This document shows positions 1,287 through 40,505 of a stretch of DNA of 64,000 nucleotides, piece by piece. The DNA is from a virus. Taxonomy: Duplodnaviria > Caudoviricetes. The notes under the pieces are model-generated. The model had not been told where the DNA came from, did no database searches, and saw nothing but the letters and a program-made list of their open reading frames with translations. The stretch's first letter is position 1, and each line of letters begins with the position of its first letter. The position numbers and the translations under genes are program-made. The stretch lies in IMG/VR virus record IMGVR_UViG_3300021387_000147. The stretch is one strand, 5' to 3'.

Positions 1287-2172
1287 GTTTTATTACCTCG
1301 TCCCAAGCATGTTCTATAAGTGTATCGACTAAATAATTATTATCAGCACAATACGACATTGTAAAATCAGGAACAGAATATCCTCCATAATAAGGGTCTT
1401 TTCTAACATCTTTGTCATACCATTGATGATCAACTGCAGCAGAACCTCTTTCGATTTTCCAATTCCAATCAGCTTGAGATTTTAAATGATAATGATAAAG
1501 TCTTACAGGTCCAGTATAATCAGTAATACCATAAGTTGTTTTTGATACACCAGAACCTACAACTTCTGATACACGTATTCCATTCATCCATGGAACATGA
1601 CCATTTTCTTTATCATTCTTTTTATAGAATTTATATTTTACACCACTATGATAACGGAAAAATGCTTTTCCTTGTGTGGTATAATCATTACGTCTATAGT
1701 AATTATCTTTTATTAAACTTCCATTTCTTGATGATGGAAGATTTTTTGAACTCATCAATATCTGTGGTACCAATACACAATCCAAGTGTCTAAACTGACT
1801 ATCTAACGCAGCTTCCAAATTTGGATAACTAATTACATCCATTGCTGAATGCTTATACCACAAATACTCGTCATCATCCAAGAAATAAATTATATCATTT
1901 TCTTGGAAACCATATCTGTTATCTTTCAATATTTCTTCATATAACTTGTATTGATTTGGCCAACCTTCAATCTTATCATAAGTGACATTTAAATTTACAT
2001 CTTTATTATAAGGCATGCCTAATTTCAAATAATTACTTACAAAGTCAAATATAGGTATTGATGAATCATTATCGATAATATGAATGAAACATCCTAATTT
2101 TAAATACCATTTGAACCAATCTTTAAAGTCTAAATAATTATACGATTTTGTTAAACAAATTACATGAACCAT
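1270..2172 (-). CDS. GT-A fold glycosyltransferase (GT2/GT92-like)
   Basis: DW..WY.KLG..IHIIDNDS, FLDDDEYL DxD motif, C-terminal LYHYHLKS. Confidence 0.7.
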   Translation of the reverse strand: MVHVICLTKSYNYLDFKDWFKWYLKLGCFIHIIDNDSSIPIFDFVSNYLKLGMPYNKDVNLNVTYDKIEGWPNQYKLYEEILKDNRYGFQENDIIYFLDDDEYLWYKHSAMDVISYPNLEAALDSQFRHLDCVLVPQILMSSKNLPSSRNGSLIKDNYYRRNDYTTQGKAFFRYHSGVKYKFYKKNDKENGHVPWMNGIRVSEVVGSGVSKTTYGITDYTGPVRLYHYHLKSQADWNWKIERGSAAVDHQWYDKDVRKDPYYGGYSVPDFTMSYCADNNYLVDTLIEHAWDEVIKHDSKI

Positions 2173-2881
2173 TTATACGCTCTTTAGCTATTTCAAAATA
2201 AGTTAATTCTTTTTCTATTCCAATAAAGTTTCTATTTAAGTTTTTGCATGCAACTCCAGTTGAACCGCTCCCCATACAATTATCTAATACAGTATCACCT
2301 TCATTTGTAAAGGACTTGATAAGATATTCTAATAGTTCAACCGGTTTTTGAGTTGGATGAACTATGTGATGCTTATCTACTCTATTAAATCTTAATACTT
2401 GTTTTGGATAACGGGTACCATCATCTATATATTCTGTAGGTTTGATTTGATTATCTGAAGATAACTTACCAAACTTACCTTTTACAGTATTCTTAACAAG
2501 CTTTCCTTCATGTTTATATTTCTGAGGATTGTAAGTGCATTGTTTCTTATAGAATACTGATATAGTTTCAATGTTCTTTCCAAAACGTTTTTTTAATTGT
2601 AATACGTTTGTTGGAGCTTCTTTTTCCCAATATAAATCGTATTTGTAATCTTTTAAATTACTCATCCTAAGCATAGATGAGAAAGGTTCTTGTCCAAACA
2701 AAACAATTGCCGCGTTTGACTTGCAAACACGATTGTATTCTTTCCAAAGATCTTCAAATGGAATTACTACATCCCATGGACATTTCGTTGTTCCATAGGG
2801 TAAATCGCATAAAACCATATCTACTGAATTATCAGCGATAGATTTCATTGCGTTTAAACAATCATCATTAAATAGATTCAT
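2138..2881 (-). CDS. DNA N6-adenine/N4-cytosine methyltransferase (beta class)
   Basis: Catalytic DLPY motif IV N-terminal, HPTQKP, then SAM-binding VLDNCMGSGSTG. Confidence 0.92.
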   Translation of the reverse strand: MNLFNDDCLNAMKSIADNSVDMVLCDLPYGTTKCPWDVVIPFEDLWKEYNRVCKSNAAIVLFGQEPFSSMLRMSNLKDYKYDLYWEKEAPTNVLQLKKRFGKNIETISVFYKKQCTYNPQKYKHEGKLVKNTVKGKFGKLSSDNQIKPTEYIDDGTRYPKQVLRFNRVDKHHIVHPTQKPVELLEYLIKSFTNEGDTVLDNCMGSGSTGVACKNLNRNFIGIEKELTYFEIAKERINGSCNLFNKIV

Positions 2882-3158
2882 CTAATTTTGATAATACACT
2901 TGAATGAACTTCAGTTCTTGCTTTCCAAAGTCCTAGTTTTACTAATTCTTCTCTTAGTTTAGAAAATGAAACTGTTACAGGTAAAAATAAATCATCTACC
3001 TTTTCAATTGTTGCTTCTTCTTTTTTTAAATCATATTTAATAAAATATGTTTCTAAACCTTTCTTAATTTTAGTTGTTTGGAAATCATAACCGTTGCATT
3101 CAATTAAACCTTCAATATTCTTGAATTTCCAAATTGCGAATGCATCAACTGTCATCAT
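2868..3158 (-). CDS. hypothetical protein
   Basis: 96-aa ORF with AGGAAG SD. Confidence 0.6.
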   Translation of the reverse strand: MMTVDAFAIWKFKNIEGLIECNGYDFQTTKIKKGLETYFIKYDLKKEEATIEKVDDLFLPVTVSFSKLREELVKLGLWKARTEVHSSVLSKLDESI

Positions 3159-3163
3159 ACTTC

Positions 3164-3514
3164 CTATACTTCCTCGTTTAATACTTGGCAGAAGTCTATA
3201 AAATCATTATAGAAGTCTTCTATATTTTTCTTATACGCTTCTGTCTTACTATACCATTTTGAATTTTTCTTTAATTTAGAATAATCAAATATCTTAATGA
3301 CATTACTTTTATCTTCTTTAACTTCATTAAAGTGTTTACGTGCACATGGAATAAACCTTTCCAAATTTGTGACATTCAGAAATTTCACAAAAATTTCTCG
3401 ATTTTTTACGTTATCTCCTTCTACAAAACATGTAATAGGCAGATTATAATCATGTGCTACTGTGTTTAATTTAGACGTTAATTGTAATAATACATTATCC
3501 CAAGAATTAGACAT
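3164..3514 (-). CDS. hypothetical protein (start re-called to ATG 3514)
   Basis: AGGAG SD precedes ATG at 3514; the longer ORF start lies inside the promoter. Confidence 0.6.
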   Translation of the reverse strand: MSNSWDNVLLQLTSKLNTVAHDYNLPITCFVEGDNVKNREIFVKFLNVTNLERFIPCARKHFNEVKEDKSNVIKIFDYSKLKKNSKWYSKTEAYKKNIEDFYNDFIDFCQVLNEEV

Positions 3515-3533
3515 TTTTTTACTCCTGTTTGAA

Positions 3534-3562
3534 AATATAATAAAAACACTGGACTTTGTCAA
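3534..3562 (-). promoter_or_regulatory. sigma70-type early/middle promoter
   Basis: TTGACA-N17-TATATT on the minus strand, upstream of the operon containing the methylase, GT and thyX. Confidence 0.75.
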
Positions 3563-3592
3563 CCAGTGTTTTTAAAATATGATTCTAGTTTT

Positions 3593-4360
3593 TTACTTTT
3601 CAGAAACGTCGATAGTGTCCAATTTAATTACTGCATCACGAGATGTATTCAAATCATTCTTTTGGTCAGCTATATCCTGCTTGATTTCATCACGCTTTAG
3701 AATTAATGGCTCTTTCAACTTTCTAATTAAGTATGCACTTGTTTTAATATCCAACTTTTTACAGATATTTTCTACCAAGAAAATTGCATTCTGCACATTC
3801 TTAAATTCCAAATCTTCAGGTTTCAAGATTTTTCCATTAAAAATAAGTTCCACACATTTCTTAACTTGTTTATATTCAACTAATTGGTCTTCAGATAAAG
3901 TAGATACTAATGAAGCTGTTGCTTGCATTACTTCATCTAAATCAAACATTGTTCCTGCTGCAGGTTCATCAGGCAAAGTCACATCATCTTTGTTCTTCTT
4001 TCCAAATGTGAAGTCTGGGTCGTCTTCATGACCGTCTAAATCCAATTCTTCTTTTTTCTTATCATCTTCGGATTTACCGTCATCTTCCTCTTCACCACTT
4101 TCTCCATCTGATCCGCCATCACCGCCGGCTCCACTGCCGCCTCCTCCAGCATCATCACCAAATGGATCTCCTCCACCTGCATCATCTCCGAATGGGTCAT
4201 CACCTCCACCCATATCATCTCCACCGCCCATGTCGTCTCCGCCACCGGCGTCATCTCCTCCAAAGTCATCTTCTTCAAATAAGAACTGTTTATCAAGTTT
4301 GTCTGATAAAGTAATAGTCTTACTTGTTATTTCACCTAAAATATCGGTTAAGTTTTTCAT
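3593..4360 (-). CDS. acidic Gly/Asp-rich protein, possible prohead core/internal protein
   Basis: LFEE followed by GGDD(A/M)G and GGDPFGDD repeats; strong GAGGAG SD. Confidence 0.55.
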   Translation of the reverse strand: MKNLTDILGEITSKTITLSDKLDKQFLFEEDDFGGDDAGGGDDMGGGDDMGGGDDPFGDDAGGGDPFGDDAGGGGSGAGGDGGSDGESGEEEDDGKSEDDKKKEELDLDGHEDDPDFTFGKKNKDDVTLPDEPAAGTMFDLDEVMQATASLVSTLSEDQLVEYKQVKKCVELIFNGKILKPEDLEFKNVQNAIFLVENICKKLDIKTSAYLIRKLKEPLILKRDEIKQDIADQKNDLNTSRDAVIKLDTIDVSEK

Positions 4361-4371
4361 ATTACTCCTCT

Positions 4372-4671
4372 TTAATCTAAAACCTCGTCTAATCTAGAAA
4401 GTATAACGTCCTTATTTGAATTTCTAATATTGGAACAAGTAAGATAATTAAAAAATGTTCTTGCTGTTTTTGTATTAGAACGAGTCAACATAATTAGTAA
4501 ACCCTCTTTATCTTTATTTATGATCATTTGGACGAGAGTTTCCATTAAATCTTCCATCTTTTCACGAGTAATTTCGATATATGAGACAGAAAGCTGTTTC
4601 TTGTACTTTTCAAAGAAACGTTCAAAATACTCATCTCTATTTTCGATTTTATAAAAAACTGAATACAACAA
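4372..4671 (-). CDS. hypothetical protein
   Basis: 99-aa ORF filling the operon gap. Confidence 0.55.
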   Translation of the reverse strand: MLYSVFYKIENRDEYFERFFEKYKKQLSVSYIEITREKMEDLMETLVQMIINKDKEGLLIMLTRSNTKTARTFFNYLTCSNIRNSNKDVILSRLDEVLD

Positions 4672-4683
4672 CTTATATACCTA

Positions 4684-5229
4684 TTAACTTAAATCAAATT
4701 CTGGCTGTTCATCCTTTAATTGAAGAGAATTTTCCTTTGCCTTATTTATCATGTTCTGAATTAGATCTAATGTTTGGCTAGAATCCATTGTATATGCATT
4801 TATTTGAGTATTCATTGTTCCTGGCTTAGACTGACGCATCTGTGCAATACGTTCTCTCTGTTCTAATGCCTCTTTACGTAAGTTTTCATTAGTTTCAACA
4901 ACTTGATAATCAGTCATTTGTTTATGAAGCTGGAACAACTTCATAATCTGATTACTTATTGTTTCTGTTAAATTTCTAAATACATCATACATGTGTGGAG
5001 GACAACCTATCTTCAATTGATCTGCCAAGCCTGCTAATACAGTCTGATTTGTAGCAATCAAAGACATTAGCTCTGTCTTCATGTATTCTATATCATCAAT
5101 ATTATACTTCTGATTTTTTAATTTTTCTTCTACTTTTTGAATATACTTAGGAGATTCAGAAACGGCTTCTGCCTTTTCTTCTTCTATATTAAACTCATTT
5201 TTCAATGTATCAAATATATCACCTTCCAT
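4684..5229 (-). CDS. probable terminase small subunit (gp16-like)
   Basis: Helical protein with P(H)MYDVFRNL motif resembling the gp16 PRAYEV motif, coiled coil and TQINAY tail; late promoter upstream. Confidence 0.5.
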   Translation of the reverse strand: MEGDIFDTLKNEFNIEEEKAEAVSESPKYIQKVEEKLKNQKYNIDDIEYMKTELMSLIATNQTVLAGLADQLKIGCPPHMYDVFRNLTETISNQIMKLFQLHKQMTDYQVVETNENLRKEALEQRERIAQMRQSKPGTMNTQINAYTMDSSQTLDLIQNMINKAKENSLQLKDEQPEFDLS

Positions 5230-19554: not shown

Positions 19555-20108
19555 TAATCTTCATCCTTTCCAATAGAATGGATGGCGGCATATTTTGCAT
19601 TTCGAACAGAAGCCTTAATCATTGCTTCATTCTTTTCCTGCGTATCTCGAATTAAATCAACTGCCAACTTCCAATCTTCAAAATCTACTTTCTTAGAAAA
19701 ATCAAAATCATATCTTTCACGATAACCACCACATGCAAGCTGAACAGGAAGTTTCTTTTCATCTACATACTGATAAATGAAATTGGGAACCATCATTGTC
19801 AAAGAAATTTGCCATGGATGCCAATTCTGTCCACTTGCTCTCCAAACACTGCAAGTAATATCCTTATAAGTATACAAATTCCAATAAGTATTATCAGCAA
19901 TTTCTAAATAATAGGCTTTGCGGATTTTTTCGAACTTTTTAATAGGGTCGAAAATCACGTGATAGTCATGATGAAAATCACCATTCAAAATCAGCTTTTC
20001 TTCAGACGCTTCATAACGGTCGATAATATACAACTGTTTGGAATGCTCCTTAGACAAATACTGGAGCATATCCACGATTTTCATTTGAGCATCCCATTCG
20101 TTATACAT
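19554..20108 (-). CDS. array protein with shared C-terminal tag
   Basis: 184 aa; KYAAIHSIGKDED. Confidence 0.7.
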   Translation of the reverse strand: MYNEWDAQMKIVDMLQYLSKEHSKQLYIIDRYEASEEKLILNGDFHHDYHVIFDPIKKFEKIRKAYYLEIADNTYWNLYTYKDITCSVWRASGQNWHPWQISLTMMVPNFIYQYVDEKKLPVQLACGGYRERYDFDFSKKVDFEDWKLAVDLIRDTQEKNEAMIKASVRNAKYAAIHSIGKDED

Positions 20109-20278
20109 TATTCAACTTCTCTTCCGTCAATTTCAGTGTCAGCCAAGAAAGAACCAAACTTCTTGATAATCTTCTGACGATTTTCCTCGGCCTTAGCCTT
20201 GTCATGATACACGCCCCAAATCATACGGCGTTCGGGCTTGTCCATAGTGTTATAAGTCAAAACATATACCTTTTCCAT
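20108..20278 (-). CDS. small hypothetical protein (56 aa, below ORF-track cutoff)
   Basis: GAGGT SD; MEKVYVLTY...IWGVYHDKAKAEE, a common small phage-protein pattern; coupled to next gene by TAATG. Confidence 0.65.
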   Translation of the reverse strand: MEKVYVLTYNTMDKPERRMIWGVYHDKAKAEENRQKIIKKFGSFLADTEIDGREVE

Positions 20279-20292
20279 AATTTACCTCTTAA

Positions 20293-20478
20293 TTATTCAG
20301 CAGGCCAAATTGCTTCAATGTGATTAATTCCTACGACAATGGTCGTTCCACTAATTCGCAAATCTTTACAATTAACGAATTTTACGAAATGTTCATCCAT
20401 GGCTTCAATAGTACCGGTAAAACGAGCACCCATGTTAAACTTGCCATGCAACCAGTATCTTTTTCCAATTTCAAGCAT
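20293..20478 (-). CDS. small beta-barrel-like hypothetical protein
   Basis: 61 aa, first gene after an early promoter, GAGGT SD. Confidence 0.65.
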   Translation of the reverse strand: MLEIGKRYWLHGKFNMGARFTGTIEAMDEHFVKFVNCKDLRISGTTIVVGINHIEAIWPAE

Positions 20479-20480
20479 CT

Positions 20481-20593
20481 TAACCTCTTTTATTTTAACA
20501 AGTAAAATATACTAAAAAAGAGGTTTCTTGGAAACCCCTTTTAATGTAAAATAAAGTTTACAGAACTATAAAATATGTAAATTATAGTTTACT
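20481..20593 (-). promoter_or_regulatory. early promoter cassette copy 1 with palindromic boxes
   Basis: GGGTTTCCA-N17-TATATT; boxes TGTAAA-N6-TTTAC at 20545-20562 and 20576-20593. Confidence 0.75.
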
Positions 20594-21674: not shown

Positions 21675-21949
21675 TACTCGTCACCTCTTAGACGAAGCTG
21701 GATGCAGTGACAAGTTAACCAATCAAAATCACCAACACCAATCTTCTGCACAAAACCATCAACAATCTTCTGAGTACGGACTTCATCATCGTCATTTTCA
21801 AGAATAGTCACAAATGGATATTTCGTAGTGGAAAGAATTTCAGTCACTTCCTTCTCAACCTTTTCATCATTTGCACAGACAATAATGCCAGGAACCTGAG
21901 GTTCAGTGGGATAATACTTGAGCATTTCTTTGAACTGATACATTTGCAT
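21674..21949 (-). CDS. hypothetical protein
   Basis: 91-aa ORF, AGGAG SD. Confidence 0.65.
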   Translation of the reverse strand: MQMYQFKEMLKYYPTEPQVPGIIVCANDEKVEKEVTEILSTTKYPFVTILENDDDEVRTQKIVDGFVQKIGVGDFDWLTCHCIQLRLRGDE

Positions 21950-21963
21950 AATAAAGTCTCCTA

Positions 21964-22200
21964 TTAAAGATGGAAGTTAAACCAAGCCTTAAGCTGATCA
22001 AAATCTTTGTATTCGAGAGTGCAGTCATTCAAGTTAGTCTTAAACTTGAGTGCAAACATTGCACCATTCTTCTGAGTTTCCGGATATTCAACAAATTCCT
22101 CAATCTTGCAGAAAGTACGGTGACCCTTGCGAGGATGGCCATAAGCCTTGTTATAAGCAGCGATGCAGTTAGAAATATGAAGTGCTTTATCACCAGTCAT
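21964..22200 (-). CDS. hypothetical protein
   Basis: 78-aa ORF, AAGGAG SD. Confidence 0.65.
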   Translation of the reverse strand: MTGDKALHISNCIAAYNKAYGHPRKGHRTFCKIEEFVEYPETQKNGAMFALKFKTNLNDCTLEYKDFDQLKAWFNFHL

Positions 22201-22210
22201 TGTAAACTCC

Positions 22211-22369
22211 TTAGAACATTAAAGATGTGATGCTATCAGCAGCGATTACGCCGAGGATAAGAACTACGCCAAGGAAGTATTCGCCAAACTGCTTAATTTT
22301 AGCAACCTTAGCCTTATGCTGATAATAAGCAGTCCAGTTTTCAAATCCTTTAGGCATTATTTCGTTCAT
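22211..22369 (-). CDS. small membrane protein (52 aa, below ORF-track cutoff)
   Basis: MNEIMPKGFENW...YFLGVVLILGVIAADSITSLMF; first gene after early promoter, GAGGT SD. Confidence 0.65.
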   Translation of the reverse strand: MNEIMPKGFENWTAYYQHKAKVAKIKQFGEYFLGVVLILGVIAADSITSLMF

Positions 22370-22371
22370 CT

Positions 22372-22502
22372 TTAACCTCTTTTATTTTAACAAGTAAAAT
22401 ATAAGTATATTTGGATTCTTTGGAAACCCTGTTTTTCGTAAAATAATGTTTACAAAAGGCCTTGGAATGTAAACATTTTGTTTACGTAAACTAAAATTTA
22501 CA
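22372..22502 (-). promoter_or_regulatory. early promoter cassette copy 2 with palindromic boxes
   Basis: GGGTTTCCA-N17-TATATT; leader identical to copy 1; boxes at 22437-22454, 22468-22486 and 22485-22502. Confidence 0.75.
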
Positions 22503-22567
22503 TAAAATGATGCCATGGAGCGCATCCAGGGCATTCTTTTCCAGGGCTATTTAGTTGTTCGGCTAAT

Positions 22568-22593
22568 AAAAAAGAGCGCTTCTGGAGCGCTCT
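22568..22593 (-). terminator. rho-independent terminator
   Basis: AGAGCGCT/AGCGCTCT stem plus T-run on the minus strand, separating late genes from the early cassette. Confidence 0.7.
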
Positions 22594-22616
22594 AAAATAG
22601 CTTATTTTATGACTTT

Positions 22617-23042
22617 TTAGTCTTCATTACATATTTTATAAATCTTATTGGCAAGAGCTACATTTGTCATATCTACTGGGCCTCTAAAACTTTCACCATT
22701 TATTTCCAACCATTGAATATATGGAGCTCCTGATAGTTTTTCATATAGATTACTTGTACTAAAAGTAATTTCAATTTTATTTTTATCAATATTACCTTTA
22801 ACTATAACACGCCAATCTACTGTTGCTTTTCCAGTAGCTTTTATATTAGTCATATTTAAAGTTTCAGCACAGAAATTCTTAATGTATTCTTTAATCTTTT
22901 TATCTGTTGAATTTGCTGGTCTATCGTAATCTATATCTGGTGCACCACACATACTTGATGAAGAACCATAACAACCTTCATTCAATTGGTGAATTACATA
23001 ACCATGTTCAATTAATTCTTTTTTAGCTTCTAGTAAATTCAT
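22617..23042 (-). CDS. putative internal head protein
   Basis: N-term MNLLEAKKELIEHGY...LNE, shared with 25649-26728 and 47533-47796. Confidence 0.5.
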   Translation of the reverse strand: MNLLEAKKELIEHGYVIHQLNEGCYGSSSSMCGAPDIDYDRPANSTDKKIKEYIKNFCAETLNMTNIKATGKATVDWRVIVKGNIDKNKIEITFSTSNLYEKLSGAPYIQWLEINGESFRGPVDMTNVALANKIYKICNED

Positions 23043-37745: not shown

Positions 37746-37822
37746 TTACAACCGGGGCAAAGGATTCGTGCAAGGTTGGGAATATGGAGGAACACTCCAT
37801 ATTCTTTTTTTATAAATATAGT

Positions 37823-38230
37823 ATGCTAACATTAGATAAAAACTCAGATTTTAAACGAATTGAAACTTCCAAGGTCCAATCCAATTATTATGATTTGGAT
37901 GTTAATATAGTAGATACAGAAGTATGGTCTTTTGATGCATTAGACCAAGCTATCGAAAATGTTCTATTAACAAATAAAGGCGAACGCATTTTCAATTATT
38001 CTTTTGGAACTCCTTTAATAGAACTCTTATTTGAAAATGATGTAAATACAGATTATATCGTTGATAAAGCCTTGGATGTTATAGAAACATGGGTTCCAAT
38101 AAAAATCATTAGAAGTAAAACACAATTACAAAGAGATAAAGAAAACCATGCAATTTCATTCTTTATCTACTATAATTCTAATGACGGAATGATTAGAGAC
38201 CACTGTTTTGCTAGACGCCTAAGAAAATAA
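37823..38230 (+). CDS. baseplate wedge subunit (T4 gp25-like); start re-called to 37823
   Basis: Y.DL, AL.QAIENVLLT.KGER.F...FG, I.TW.P; TATAAATA at 37811-37818. Confidence 0.85.
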   Translation: MLTLDKNSDFKRIETSKVQSNYYDLDVNIVDTEVWSFDALDQAIENVLLTNKGERIFNYSFGTPLIELLFENDVNTDYIVDKALDVIETWVPIKIIRSKTQLQRDKENHAISFFIYYNSNDGMIRDHCFARRLRK

Positions 38231-38243
38231 GAATCTTTTTACT

Positions 38244-38276
38244 AAGGTCCATTTTACAACTAAATGGATCTTTTTT
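38244..38276 (+). terminator. rho-independent terminator after gp25-like gene
   Basis: AAGGTCCATTT/AAATGGATCTT stem plus T-run. Confidence 0.65.
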
Positions 38277-38319
38277 ATATTAACTGCAAAAATCGAGAGA
38301 TTTATTTTATAAATAATAA

Positions 38320-38920
38320 TAAAATGGTAAAAGAGAATAGCATATAAATAGCAAATTTTTAGCAACTTTTCTTTTTTCGCAGATTTTTAAGCACATACAT
38401 AAGCAAATTATCTCTTTTACCTTAGGTTGATGACTATACCATCTGTTATGTTATTTCAGAAAAATAGTTACCATAGAAGAGGTTTTTTGTAATACGAATC
38501 CTTACAAACTATTTTATAAAGTTTATTTTTATAAAGAGAAAAGGATCCTCGGCTCAACCCAATGAGTTTTAGGTGAAGTGGACCCCAGAAGAAATTCTGA
38601 ATATAATAACACAAAAGAACAGCAAGTGTTCAGTGATAAAAGTTTAACGAGCTTTTTATACGCCGTCTTGAGTATTTTTGAATAGTTAAGTCCTTGTACA
38701 GGAAGACCACCAGGGTAAAGTCAAAATGTAAATCTCCTTATACGTGAGAGTCCGATATACTGAAAAGTATTATCCCCATGTTCTATAAGTCTAAAATAGG
38801 CTTATAGTTTCAAGGTCCTCTACCTGAAAAAATAGTTATCCTATAACATTTAATTCTATAATAATTAAATACATTGGATAACAGAGTTATCCAATGTGTC
38901 AATTCCTTAGGAATTGACAA
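38320..38920 (+). ncRNA. candidate large structured non-coding RNA (class unknown)
   Basis: ORF-free, preceded by TATAAATA (38308-38315 and 38343-38350); about ten hairpins, two GAAA tetraloops, G-U wobbles that work on the plus strand. Confidence 0.5.
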
Positions 38921-38966
38921 TTTTACTATAATAAATATTCTATAAGAATTATTATATAGGGTTTAT

Positions 38967-40505
38967 ATGTTTAGTGATTATTTGAATAAACAATTTTATT
39001 CTTTTATGGATTCTTTAAAGATAAATTCTTTAAAGAAGAAAAAACATAAACCAATTAATGAAAAGTTTAATTTAATTGGATCAATTGAAATAAGTAAAGA
39101 TAATCCATATAAAGAAATAGTTTTATTTAATTTATTAGTTAATCAAACAAAACCTTTAAATGGTTTATATATTCATTTGAATCTAATAGATTATCCTAAT
39201 AAAGAAAAAGATTTAGAATTATCATTACAGTCATTATTACTTGAATTTAGTGATATTATAATAGTCAAATGGCATGATTATCCATCTGAATTTAATGTAT
39301 TATCAGTCTATCCTTTTCATAGTGTAGACCATGTTTATCTATTTGACCAATATACAGAATATGATAATGATACAGTCAATTATTTCTTTGAAAATAGAAA
39401 AGATAGAGTAATACAGAATTTAAGTAGTGATAACTTCCATAAAAAAAGAATTTATAAAAATAGTATCTTTCTTTATAATTTAAATGATGATACTTATGAA
39501 TGTAAAGAAAGAGAAAATGTAAAAATACCATGTATTGAAAACATGGTCAAAAAAGATGTATTCATTCCAGCATTTACAATAGATGAAAAATTTGATATAG
39601 ATGCTTTACATAGATTCTATAATAATCATATAGAATTGTTTAATATAGTTAATTCATTTAAGAATGAATACAGTATTGCAATTACAGATAAGAATTATAA
39701 TAACTATAAAGAAAAAGGTCTTGAAATGGACCTTTATAGAATATTGCATGATAGCGATATAAAAGAAGCTTGGCAAAAAGTATTTCCAGGTTATGATTTT
39801 TCTTTATATGGAAATATAAACATTCAAGGTATTTTGAATAGTACCATTGAAGTTGCTTCTATTGGATATAATTTCCCAGAATTTTTAATTGAGAATTTAA
39901 ATACAATTAGACATAAGATAATTGGTAAGATTGATAAGATAACATTATTGGAAAATAGTCATCATTATCAATTGAGTATGAATAGTAATGTTAGAGATGT
40001 ATTAGCTCTACGTATGCAAAATATCAATTATCTTAATAATATGACTAACCAATATTTTGATAGAACTTGGCCTAATAGAGATGAGAAACCATATTATGGT
40101 TTCCACATGTATGAAGATAGTGTCAAGTATCTTTATGATAACTGTGAACAAGATTATTTGATTATCTTTAATACTAAGGTTATATTAAAGAGTGAATTAT
40201 TATATGATGAAAATGATGTATATTGTGAATATGGCGATTACATCAAAATCTTTAATATGAAAAAGTTGAAAGAATTAAATATAAAATTTGATTCATTTGA
40301 TCAGTTTTTGAAAGAACTTGAACAAAAAGATATAAAGATAACTAAATTGGAAATGGATGCAAAGACAATTACATTGCCAATAGATTTTGATAAATACAAT
40401 GGTGTAATGTTTATCTTTGCAAGATTGAGATATAGAGTAATACAGAAATACTTGCGTGATCATGGAGTGAGCTTAGTTTATGATAAATTTTGGAATAGTC
40501 GATAA
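38967..40505 (+). CDS. hypothetical protein with degenerate GT-A-like segments
   Basis: LVNQTKP...I.L.L segment and ITLLENS...DYLIIF segment resemble the neighbouring GTs but lack an intact DxD. Confidence 0.5.
   Translation: MFSDYLNKQFYSFMDSLKINSLKKKKHKPINEKFNLIGSIEISKDNPYKEIVLFNLLVNQTKPLNGLYIHLNLIDYPNKEKDLELSLQSLLLEFSDIIIVKWHDYPSEFNVLSVYPFHSVDHVYLFDQYTEYDNDTVNYFFENRKDRVIQNLSSDNFHKKRIYKNSIFLYNLNDDTYECKERENVKIPCIENMVKKDVFIPAFTIDEKFDIDALHRFYNNHIELFNIVNSFKNEYSIAITDKNYNNYKEKGLEMDLYRILHDSDIKEAWQKVFPGYDFSLYGNINIQGILNSTIEVASIGYNFPEFLIENLNTIRHKIIGKIDKITLLENSHHYQLSMNSNVRDVLALRMQNINYLNNMTNQYFDRTWPNRDEKPYYGFHMYEDSVKYLYDNCEQDYLIIFNTKVILKSELLYDENDVYCEYGDYIKIFNMKKLKELNIKFDSFDQFLKELEQKDIKITKLEMDAKTITLPIDFDKYNGVMFIFARLRYRVIQKYLRDHGVSLVYDKFWNSR

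Follow-up and report, generated by a model that had tools for sequence, protein, structure and literature searches.

The DNA considered here is a window of 64,000 nt from the virus record IMGVR_UViG_3300021387_000147 (Caudoviricetes). Its longest gap between open reading frames (ORFs) of at least 90 aa, 38231–38966 (736 nt), contains on the plus strand a conserved, transcribed and folded RNA. It belongs, as a divergent member, to a phage RNA family built around the Rfam motif cow-rumen-2 (RF02947). Upstream the gap is bounded by a 148-aa gene, 37784–38230, for a gp25-like baseplate wedge protein (PHROG baseplate wedge, E = 1e-7; the match to Pfam GPW_gp25 is slightly below the cut-off), and downstream by a 512-aa gene, the first of three large plus-strand baseplate genes. 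No open frame crosses it under translation tables 11 and 4 or with TAG or TAA read as glutamine, and hidden coding is ruled out, since all four genetic codes leave the gap closed. A terminator-like hairpin followed by a T run ends the gp25-like gene (38244–38276, plus strand; 11-pair stem at 38244–38272, T-rich tail). A preliminary description of this DNA, made from the letters alone, had pointed to the longest ORF-free intergenic stretch, to the insulating terminator and to a structured plus-strand non-coding RNA (ncRNA); all three stand, the last because an Rfam covariance model matches, relatives show compensatory changes, there are RNA-seq contigs and conservation is extreme. The extent of about 600 nt given there is too large, as the conserved RNA covers only about 275–310 nt, ~38540–38815.

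The core of the RNA was located by a sensitive cmscan search of the 1 kb at 38100–39100. The whole RF02947 model (positions 1–106) aligns with 38632–38740, on the plus strand only and with four non-standard pairs, at 52.1 bits (E = 1.5e-8), below the gathering score of 66 bits. The consensus secondary structure is retained over the whole model, and the invariant nucleotides of the motif are found as GCCGYC at 38662–38667, ACAGGAWGACC at 38688–38698, UAAG at 38707–38710 (UAAAG) and GUAA at 38720–38723. Canonical relatives score 90–108 bits against the same model, a typical one 105 bits. The locus had earlier been regarded as assignable to no class, and this view gives way to membership of the cow-rumen-2-centred family. 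The 1-kb search returned no match to ROOL, GOLLD, ribozyme, riboswitch, transfer RNA (tRNA) or transfer-messenger RNA (tmRNA) models, and the RNA is not like ROOL or GOLLD, cited before as examples from phages, as neither covariance model matches even at E ≤ 10. Resemblances noticed by eye to RNase P, tmRNA, a group I intron, the signal recognition particle RNA, 5S loop E and the GTPase centre were dropped, since no Rfam model responds to them. Identity as a tRNA or tmRNA was dropped as well, ARAGORN finding none in the window and none at the RNA site of 28 related loci. The intergenic region (IGR) was also compared by blastn with 50,697 phage records, none of which matched.

About 40 distinct true members of the family were found in IMG/VR by a pattern search derived from the motif, and in all of them the motif lies within a non-coding gap of about 450 nt. 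Their alignments show that conservation reaches far past the 106-nt Rfam model, which is the centre of a pseudoknotted phage RNA of 280–345 nt. This RNA consists of a 5' domain (consensus AAGUC..UUCCUCGGAGCGAAG..CAAYYCAAUG..UGUCGGUAGAGGG..AGCC), two hairpins, the Rfam core and a 3' domain (UUCCU..AUAGGCUUAU..UCUC). Its fold begins with a long irregular 5' hairpin, whose loop CAAYYCAAUG is invariant, and a hairpin with a pseudoknot-forming loop; another two hairpins lead to the cow-rumen-2 core with its three stems, and the AUAGGCUUAU hairpin belongs to the 3' domain that follows. On 28 sequences the structure comprises 67 pairs in 13 helices, with 86% of cells paired against 68% in shuffles. 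Covariation among these homologues is strong: the score is 0.484 against 0.168 for shuffled alignments, none of 500 shuffles scored as high, slid partners reached at most 0.12, and 47 pairs are changed on both sides. In the pseudoknot the loop of the second hairpin, H2, pairs with the strand directly before the Rfam motif, and all four of its pairs covary. The 5' domain tested alone gave the same covariation picture, and loop and junction nucleotides are invariant across very different phages. A further helix, between GUAGAGG of the 5' domain and UCUCUAC of the 3' tail, was rejected as no better than shuffles; in individual sequences only, the alignment being poor there, UCUC closes a local helix with GAGA, AGAC or AGAU just past the core. 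RNAalifold gave no consensus for the 3' hairpin, the registers of which differ.

In L014 and L097, beside a gene matching phrog_447 and homing-endonuclease families, lies a strongly diverged form of the motif (GCCCGCCGUC...GUACAGGAUGACCGCCUAAGC), which was excluded from the structure counts. In L017, L027 and L032, contigs of much higher GC, the core has a G+C-rich relative (AACAGGAAGACC, GCCGUCUUGCC), and such relatives may extend the family past AT-rich phages.

The window copy can be followed part by part along the plus strand. By alignment, its reduced 5' domain (38540–38585) consists of UCCUCGG, an apical hairpin GGCUC/GAGUU at 38551–38568 with the family loop CAAYYCAAUG, and AGGUGAAGUGGACC, which stands where the family has GUCGGUAGAGGGU. 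Next comes a hairpin CAGAA-GAAA-UUCUG (38586–38599), by fold and alignment the positional equivalent of H2, and then GAACA-GCAAG-UGUUC (38617–38631), in which the pseudoknot helix of the family is made as a plain hairpin, an arrangement shared with the orthologous locus L127 (CUUA/UAAG). By the alignment, this copy lacks the CGA/UCG helix and helix H3. Past the core, the 3' domain has a variable hairpin GAUAUACU-GAAA-AGUAUUAUC at 38754–38774, whose counterpart in the alignment, in one subgroup of the family, is the CUUUAUGCCAAAAG hairpin region, and the conserved 3' hairpin CUAUAAGUCUA-AAA-UAGGCUUAUAG followed by UUUC at 38780–38813, which matches the family's AUAGGCUUAU...UCUC. Profile R2, which represents the 3' domain and was derived from 27 relatives with no window-type sequence among them, has a single match over both strands of the 64 kb, at 38780–38813 (14 bits, E = 0.0037). 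By the test for the family's 3' domain (a AUAGGCUUAU hairpin and then UCUC, 45–100 nt past the core) the window copy belongs to the family; by that for the 5' domain (helices Pa, CGA/UCG and Pb with loop CAAYYCAAUG, then H2) it does not. From these features it can be considered a divergent branch with a simplified 5' domain and late promoters upstream.

Most pairings read by eye in the preliminary description exist. GGCUC/GAGUU, CAGAA/UUCUG, GAACA/UGUUC, AAAAGUU/GCUUUU and GAUAUACU/AGUAUUAUC are present in sequence and fold, as are the inverted repeats 38326–38336/38411–38421 (11 bp, perfect), 38783–38793/38797–38807 (one G-U), 38871–38882/38886–38897 and 38897–38907/38909–38919 (both perfect). 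Two of the pairings do not survive: TCCT/AGGA clashes with the family structure, where CCUU pairs with AGGG, and the long-range closure 38444–38459/38824–38848 is without comparative support, its segments being largely a direct repeat. The latter, 19 nt long with 16 of 19 positions identical, lies at 38460–38478 and 38828–38846, 368 nt apart, and brackets the conserved RNA and a candidate promoter; it could be the boundary of a cassette, or chance in AT-rich DNA. A flanking direct repeat seen by eye in L127 was not confirmed by a repeat finder and was discarded.

L127 is a more distant orthologue with the same gp25-like neighbour and a 511-aa one on the other side. Its core scores 37.9 bits against RF02947, and profile R2 matches it at 1931–1970 (E = 0.0026). 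Between the window and L127, four helices in all are retained through compensatory changes, AAAAGUU/GCUUUU becoming AAAGAC/AUCUUU, UUUUUGA/UCAAAAU becoming UUAUUGA/UCAAUAA, GAACA/UGUUC becoming CUUA/UAAG, and CAGAA/UUCUG becoming CAGG/CCUG (CAGG-CUAA-CCUG); stems H4 and H5 of the core carry compensatory substitutions between the two. In both loci the RNA is preceded by a late promoter and followed by a pair of hairpins that are unrelated in sequence between the two. L127 has one TATAAATA at the place matching 38308–38350 and, at the position matching the window terminator, a hairpin of other sequence. Window positions 38320–38440, including the 11-bp inverted repeat, are missing from it, and this segment is therefore lineage-specific.

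Among nine close relatives 38640–38775 has no variable site, and the adjacent gp25-like gene has 8–16 per 50 nt. In one relative, G001, the IGR is 99% identical to that of the window and the next protein 88%. Transcription was evident in Logan contigs from three metatranscriptome studies (sheep gut, bovine gut and a 2013 gut sample). Three stand-alone RNA contigs of 316–362 nt, at 38349–38710, 38351–38707 and 38483–38798, cover 38349–38798 and reach neither flanking gene; their ends at 38707–38710 and 38798, and the parts left uncovered (runs X6–X8), were not taken as transcript ends.

A reading in which there is no RNA gene would make the gap DNA-level punctuation only (terminators, promoters, recombination cassettes), with a fold signal that comes from palindromes. 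Perfect palindromes and the flanking direct repeat are indeed there, and the fold score is equal on both strands: the minimum free energy of 38308–38960 lies well below that of shuffles (z −4.8), as the preliminary description would have it, and the minus strand does the same (z −4.7), so that energy does not choose the strand; for 38510–38845 z is −3.8. What speaks against such a reading is that the covariance-model match is strand-specific, that helices depending on G-U pairs and compensatory changes extend across the ~40 relatives, that the core is invariant where palindromes are absent, and that discrete RNA contigs cover the region. It is contradicted by the strand-specific covariation and is hardly credible.

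The explanation preferred here, and on balance a probable one, is that the locus is a plus-strand gene for a folded ncRNA of a giant T4-like gut or rumen phage, and that this RNA is stable and acts by binding a conserved partner. Late transcription would start at the TATAAATA promoters (38308 and 38343), with a weak promoter at 38487–38515 as a possible additional source, and would end at the twin hairpins 38871–38925, giving a transcript of ~550–600 nt whose first 200 nt would be lineage-specific. The RNA would then accumulate as a stable molecule and work through the invariant, largely unpaired nucleotides of its core, the partner being a protein, of phage or host, or else a small ligand; neither base-pairing with a target nor a role as a mere spacer is envisaged.

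Several observations weigh against this explanation. At gathering thresholds no Rfam model matches anywhere in the window, the cow-rumen-2 score being among those that fall short. With default filters a model of the family's 5' domain (R1, 25 pairs) has no match in the window, and with filters off, over the 736 nt, it picks up only the apical hairpin at 38552–38567 with its CAACCCAAUG loop (7.8 bits, E = 0.13); the homology of the window 5' domain to that of the family, unrecognised by this model, appears weak. The core region of L127 folds no better than shuffles (z −0.07), and for this reason, and because z is equal on both strands of the window, no argument is built here on folding energy. 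From the contigs one learns that the sequence is present, but neither its strand nor its ends nor its level, and in a fourth run one contig spans the whole region. The partner-binding step is a best guess at the mechanism. Finally, a genome with three to four copies that have diverged and mostly stand before co-directional genes (10/12; 23/30) is no less compatible with an element acting in cis than with one acting in trans.

The two exact T4-type late-promoter motifs TATAAATA lie on the plus strand at 38308–38315 and 38343–38350 with no ORF behind them; both had been noted before, the second a few nt off its true place. Elsewhere in the window many copies of TATAAATA stand directly upstream of genes, on the matching strand. 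The pair probably drives late transcription of the RNA region, and transcription from these two promoters is plausible because contigs X6 and X7 begin at 38349 and 38351. A candidate sigma-70-type promoter, TTGTAA-N17-TATTTT (38487–38515, plus strand), sits where the relatives have their promoter; contig X8 starts upstream of it, at 38483, and it is therefore dispensable for explaining the transcripts. It is overlapped by a palindrome, TTTGTAA-N9-TTACAAA (38486–38508), and at the matching place L127 has CATGCA-N9-TGCATG. At the other end two adjacent perfect hairpins, the second followed by AUUUUAC, occupy 38871–38925 (plus strand) and are the likely 3' end of the transcript; in some close relatives 38900–38950 is replaced.

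Between the late promoters and the conserved RNA lies the lineage-specific 5' extension (38326–38421, plus strand), an 11-bp stem GGUAAAAGAGA/UCUCUUUUACC around TAGCA and AAGCA repeats, which is outside the conserved family RNA. Within this inverted repeat, at 38339–38407, TAGCA occurs three times at ~11-nt spacing and is followed by two AAGCA, with an iteron-like look. Among close relatives 38350–38400 is the most variable of the IGR bins in the RNA region; one A>G change retains a G-U pair on the plus strand only.

In the wider family a −10-like box (TAnnTTTG or TATAAT) is located at a fixed distance upstream of the RNAs, with a TTTACA box 17 nt further up in about half of the loci, which suggests a promoter of host type. 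An exact TATAAATA follows 40–63 nt past the 3' hairpin (TAGGC) in 22 of 37 distinct loci, before very different genes (for example in L009, L018, L044, L057 and L301), and the RNA with its promoter and the late promoter looks like one cassette. The next gene often encodes a baseplate hub protein (PF12322, phrog_150), and terminators follow several family copies. In L048 and L088 four consecutive short GC-rich hairpins with GCAA, UUCG and UUGC-type loops stand ~60–200 nt after the RNA, before a tail-tube-like gene. Above the Rfam cut-off there are four copies each in G002 (IMGVR_UViG_3300028832_000001, 416 kb) and G004 (3300037455_000543, 424 kb), both with terminal repeats and rated complete, and three in G003 (3300023371_000061, 411 kb), linear and rated 98% complete. 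In these three megaphages the copies are dispersed and diverged, and about half of them are found at divergent strand switches; a 248-kb phage has one copy. The RF02947 model found no copies in 14 control genomes.

The gene downstream of the RNA is co-directional with it in 23 of 30 loci and for 10 of 12 megaphage copies, the gene upstream only in about half. This asymmetry favours a cis-acting operon leader, acting co-transcriptionally on its own polymerase or message, be it by read-through of the 38871–38925 hairpins in the manner of HK022 put or as a large ligand-sensing leader. The short fixed distance from the promoter agrees with such a role, as do the three to four diverged copies per 411–424-kb genome, each heading a different gene block, and the layout of the window, where a single strand carries the promoters, then the RNA, two terminator-like hairpins and finally three large baseplate genes. 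The HK022 put site is an RNA of ~70 nt with two stem-loops. Like put and other antitermination leaders, the RNA comes right after a promoter, heads gene blocks, occurs once per transcription unit and, in the window, has terminators downstream; it differs in being ~300 nt long and in often having a separate late promoter between itself and the genes. In the 22 of 37 loci with such a promoter the late message is made without the RNA, because the promoter sits between RNA and gene. Moreover, the copies in L305 and L308 face a convergent gene and have nothing downstream to regulate, the RNA contigs end before the downstream gene, and a pseudoknotted RNA of ~300 nt is far larger than put or EAR elements. 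A leader function is rather unlikely on this evidence, and a gene for a separate, stable RNA remains the preferred explanation.

A UvsY-like gene adjoins the RNA divergently in two lineages, those of L060 type (E = 2.8e-12) and L049 type (E = 4e-5), and baseplate hub or wedge genes flank it in other loci and in the window. In T4, oriF lies at uvsY/25/26 and oriE within the baseplate cluster. The RNA could accordingly be an origin-associated primer, a promoter-driven transcript that forms an R-loop and starts the leading strand in the way known from T4 ori(uvsY) and ori(34), with a fold that aids the hybrid as in ColE1 RNA II. Promoter-driven transcripts beside uvsY and baseplate genes, several per genome, are common to both systems; the several dispersed copies, half of them at divergent strand switches, and the iteron-like TAGCA repeats at 38339–38407 can be added on the same side. 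T4 origin transcripts are not known to be conserved folded RNAs, and they depend on MotA-dependent middle promoters and an AT-rich unwinding element, neither of which was found at the locus. With its higher G+C content and tight fold, the conserved part of the locus is the reverse of an unwinding element; the repeats lie in the segment that is conserved least and that L127 lacks, and a primer would not be expected to keep its loop nucleotides invariant across distant phages. The preliminary description had kept an origin as its alternative, for which GC skew offers no help, as skew in the window merely tracks gene direction. A folded RNA is favoured over a plain primer because the core is conserved and of tertiary type, and a primer seems quite improbable.

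In L108 a family RNA stands directly beside an array of 18 tRNA genes (1820–4041), and this proximity suits a new large ribozyme with the invariant junction nucleotides as active site, whether for self-cleavage, for the processing of phage transcripts or tRNA precursors, or for another reaction. Size, pseudoknot and dense invariant unpaired nucleotides bring the RNA closer to catalytic RNAs than to typical small RNAs, and inside the core, at 38707 and 38710, lie the ends of two contigs that come from separate studies. The contig of the third study runs across 38707–38710, however, and cleavage can hardly be argued from where contigs end; at a threshold as loose as E ≤ 10 the Rfam ribozyme models still give no match. 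The complementarity AAGUC/GGCUU, which by eye recalls P4 of RNase P, was set aside, being accounted for by two local covarying hairpins. Catalysis is thus doubtful, to about the same degree as priming. Within a few kb of another family RNA, L073 carries a phage tmRNA at 4369–4722 (tag ANTYAMAA).

The preferred explanation, a stable folded ncRNA, builds on a motif that is already known, RF02947, which we take to originate from the supplement of the study by Weinberg et al. of 2017. Cow-rumen-2 goes unmentioned in the main text of that study (PMC5737381), the Rfam 15 paper lists it as improved by R-scape (PMC11701678), and Fremin et al. 2023 excluded overlaps with Rfam and listed RNAs only up to 151 nt. 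The likeness between the window RNA and the motif extends over all 106 positions on the same strand (a hairpin, the GCCGYC linker and a long stem with the ACAGGAWGACC three-stem tip) and to the setting, intergenic in rumen or gut phage DNA. They differ in that the window and L127 score only 52 and 38 bits against the cut-off of 66, and in that the Rfam entry covers one third of the RNA, apparently without the 5' domain, pseudoknot, 3' domain, promoters, phage context and multi-copy state; from the relatives of cow-rumen-2 the window branch is set apart by the loss of helix H3 and the CGA/UCG helix and by the pseudoknot helix formed as a hairpin. In the literature searched, no account was met of the full-length RNA, its pseudoknot, promoters, phage and gene context, copy number or divergent late-transcribed branch. 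The preliminary description is in this way confirmed in part as to what it observed and supported in part as to its interpretation.

Large, intricately folded RNAs of bacteria and phages are rare and have repeatedly turned out to have unusual biochemistry, as in RNase P, group I and II introns and the cages of ROOL and GOLLD. ROOL and GOLLD are often located in phages or prophages, sometimes near tRNA genes. Both ROOL (RF03087) and GOLLD (RF01998) have been described as large ornate RNAs (PMC5737381; cryo-EM preprint 10.1101/2024.12.08.627333). Like them, the family described here is large, multi-helix, pseudoknotted, non-coding and of orphan function; unlike them, it has about half the size of ROOL, another fold, no match in sequence or structure, and several diverged copies per genome. 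A small orphan motif of the catalogues is in this way shown as the centre of a far larger phage RNA, transcribed in animal-gut samples. RNA biology gains a defined, alignable target with ~40 diverse sequences and two structural branches, and phage biology a testable link from an RNA to T4-type replication or late-gene control; even a stable RNA of unknown role would correct and extend an Rfam family. A broader proposal is offered tentatively, as possible without being probable: T4-like phages of rumen and gut might possess a class of ~300-nt pseudoknotted RNAs, in three to four diverged copies in large phages, lying between a host-type and a late promoter beside uvsY or baseplate genes, and with an activity of their own, as a ribozyme, as a ribonucleoprotein or as a link from early transcription to the start of replication or the activation of late promoters. 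The window would then hold a second, late-transcribed branch of this class.

Some observations touch on the distribution of the RNA and on the rest of the window. A metagenome scan for window-type copies returned only near-identical sequences and an unrelated protein gene, and a scan of genome contigs gave chance matches in high-GC genomes with L216 as the sole exception. The latter, an 11.8-kb contig (JBJFGR010000080.1) binned with a metagenome-assembled genome of Succinivibrionaceae, carries a near-identical copy of the window RNA locus, and its binning is a weak hint that Succinivibrionaceae are hosts of the window phage. It is also worth recording that two more gaps in the window are devoid of ORFs of at least 90 aa, 21949–22617 (668 nt) and 20108–20589 (481 nt).

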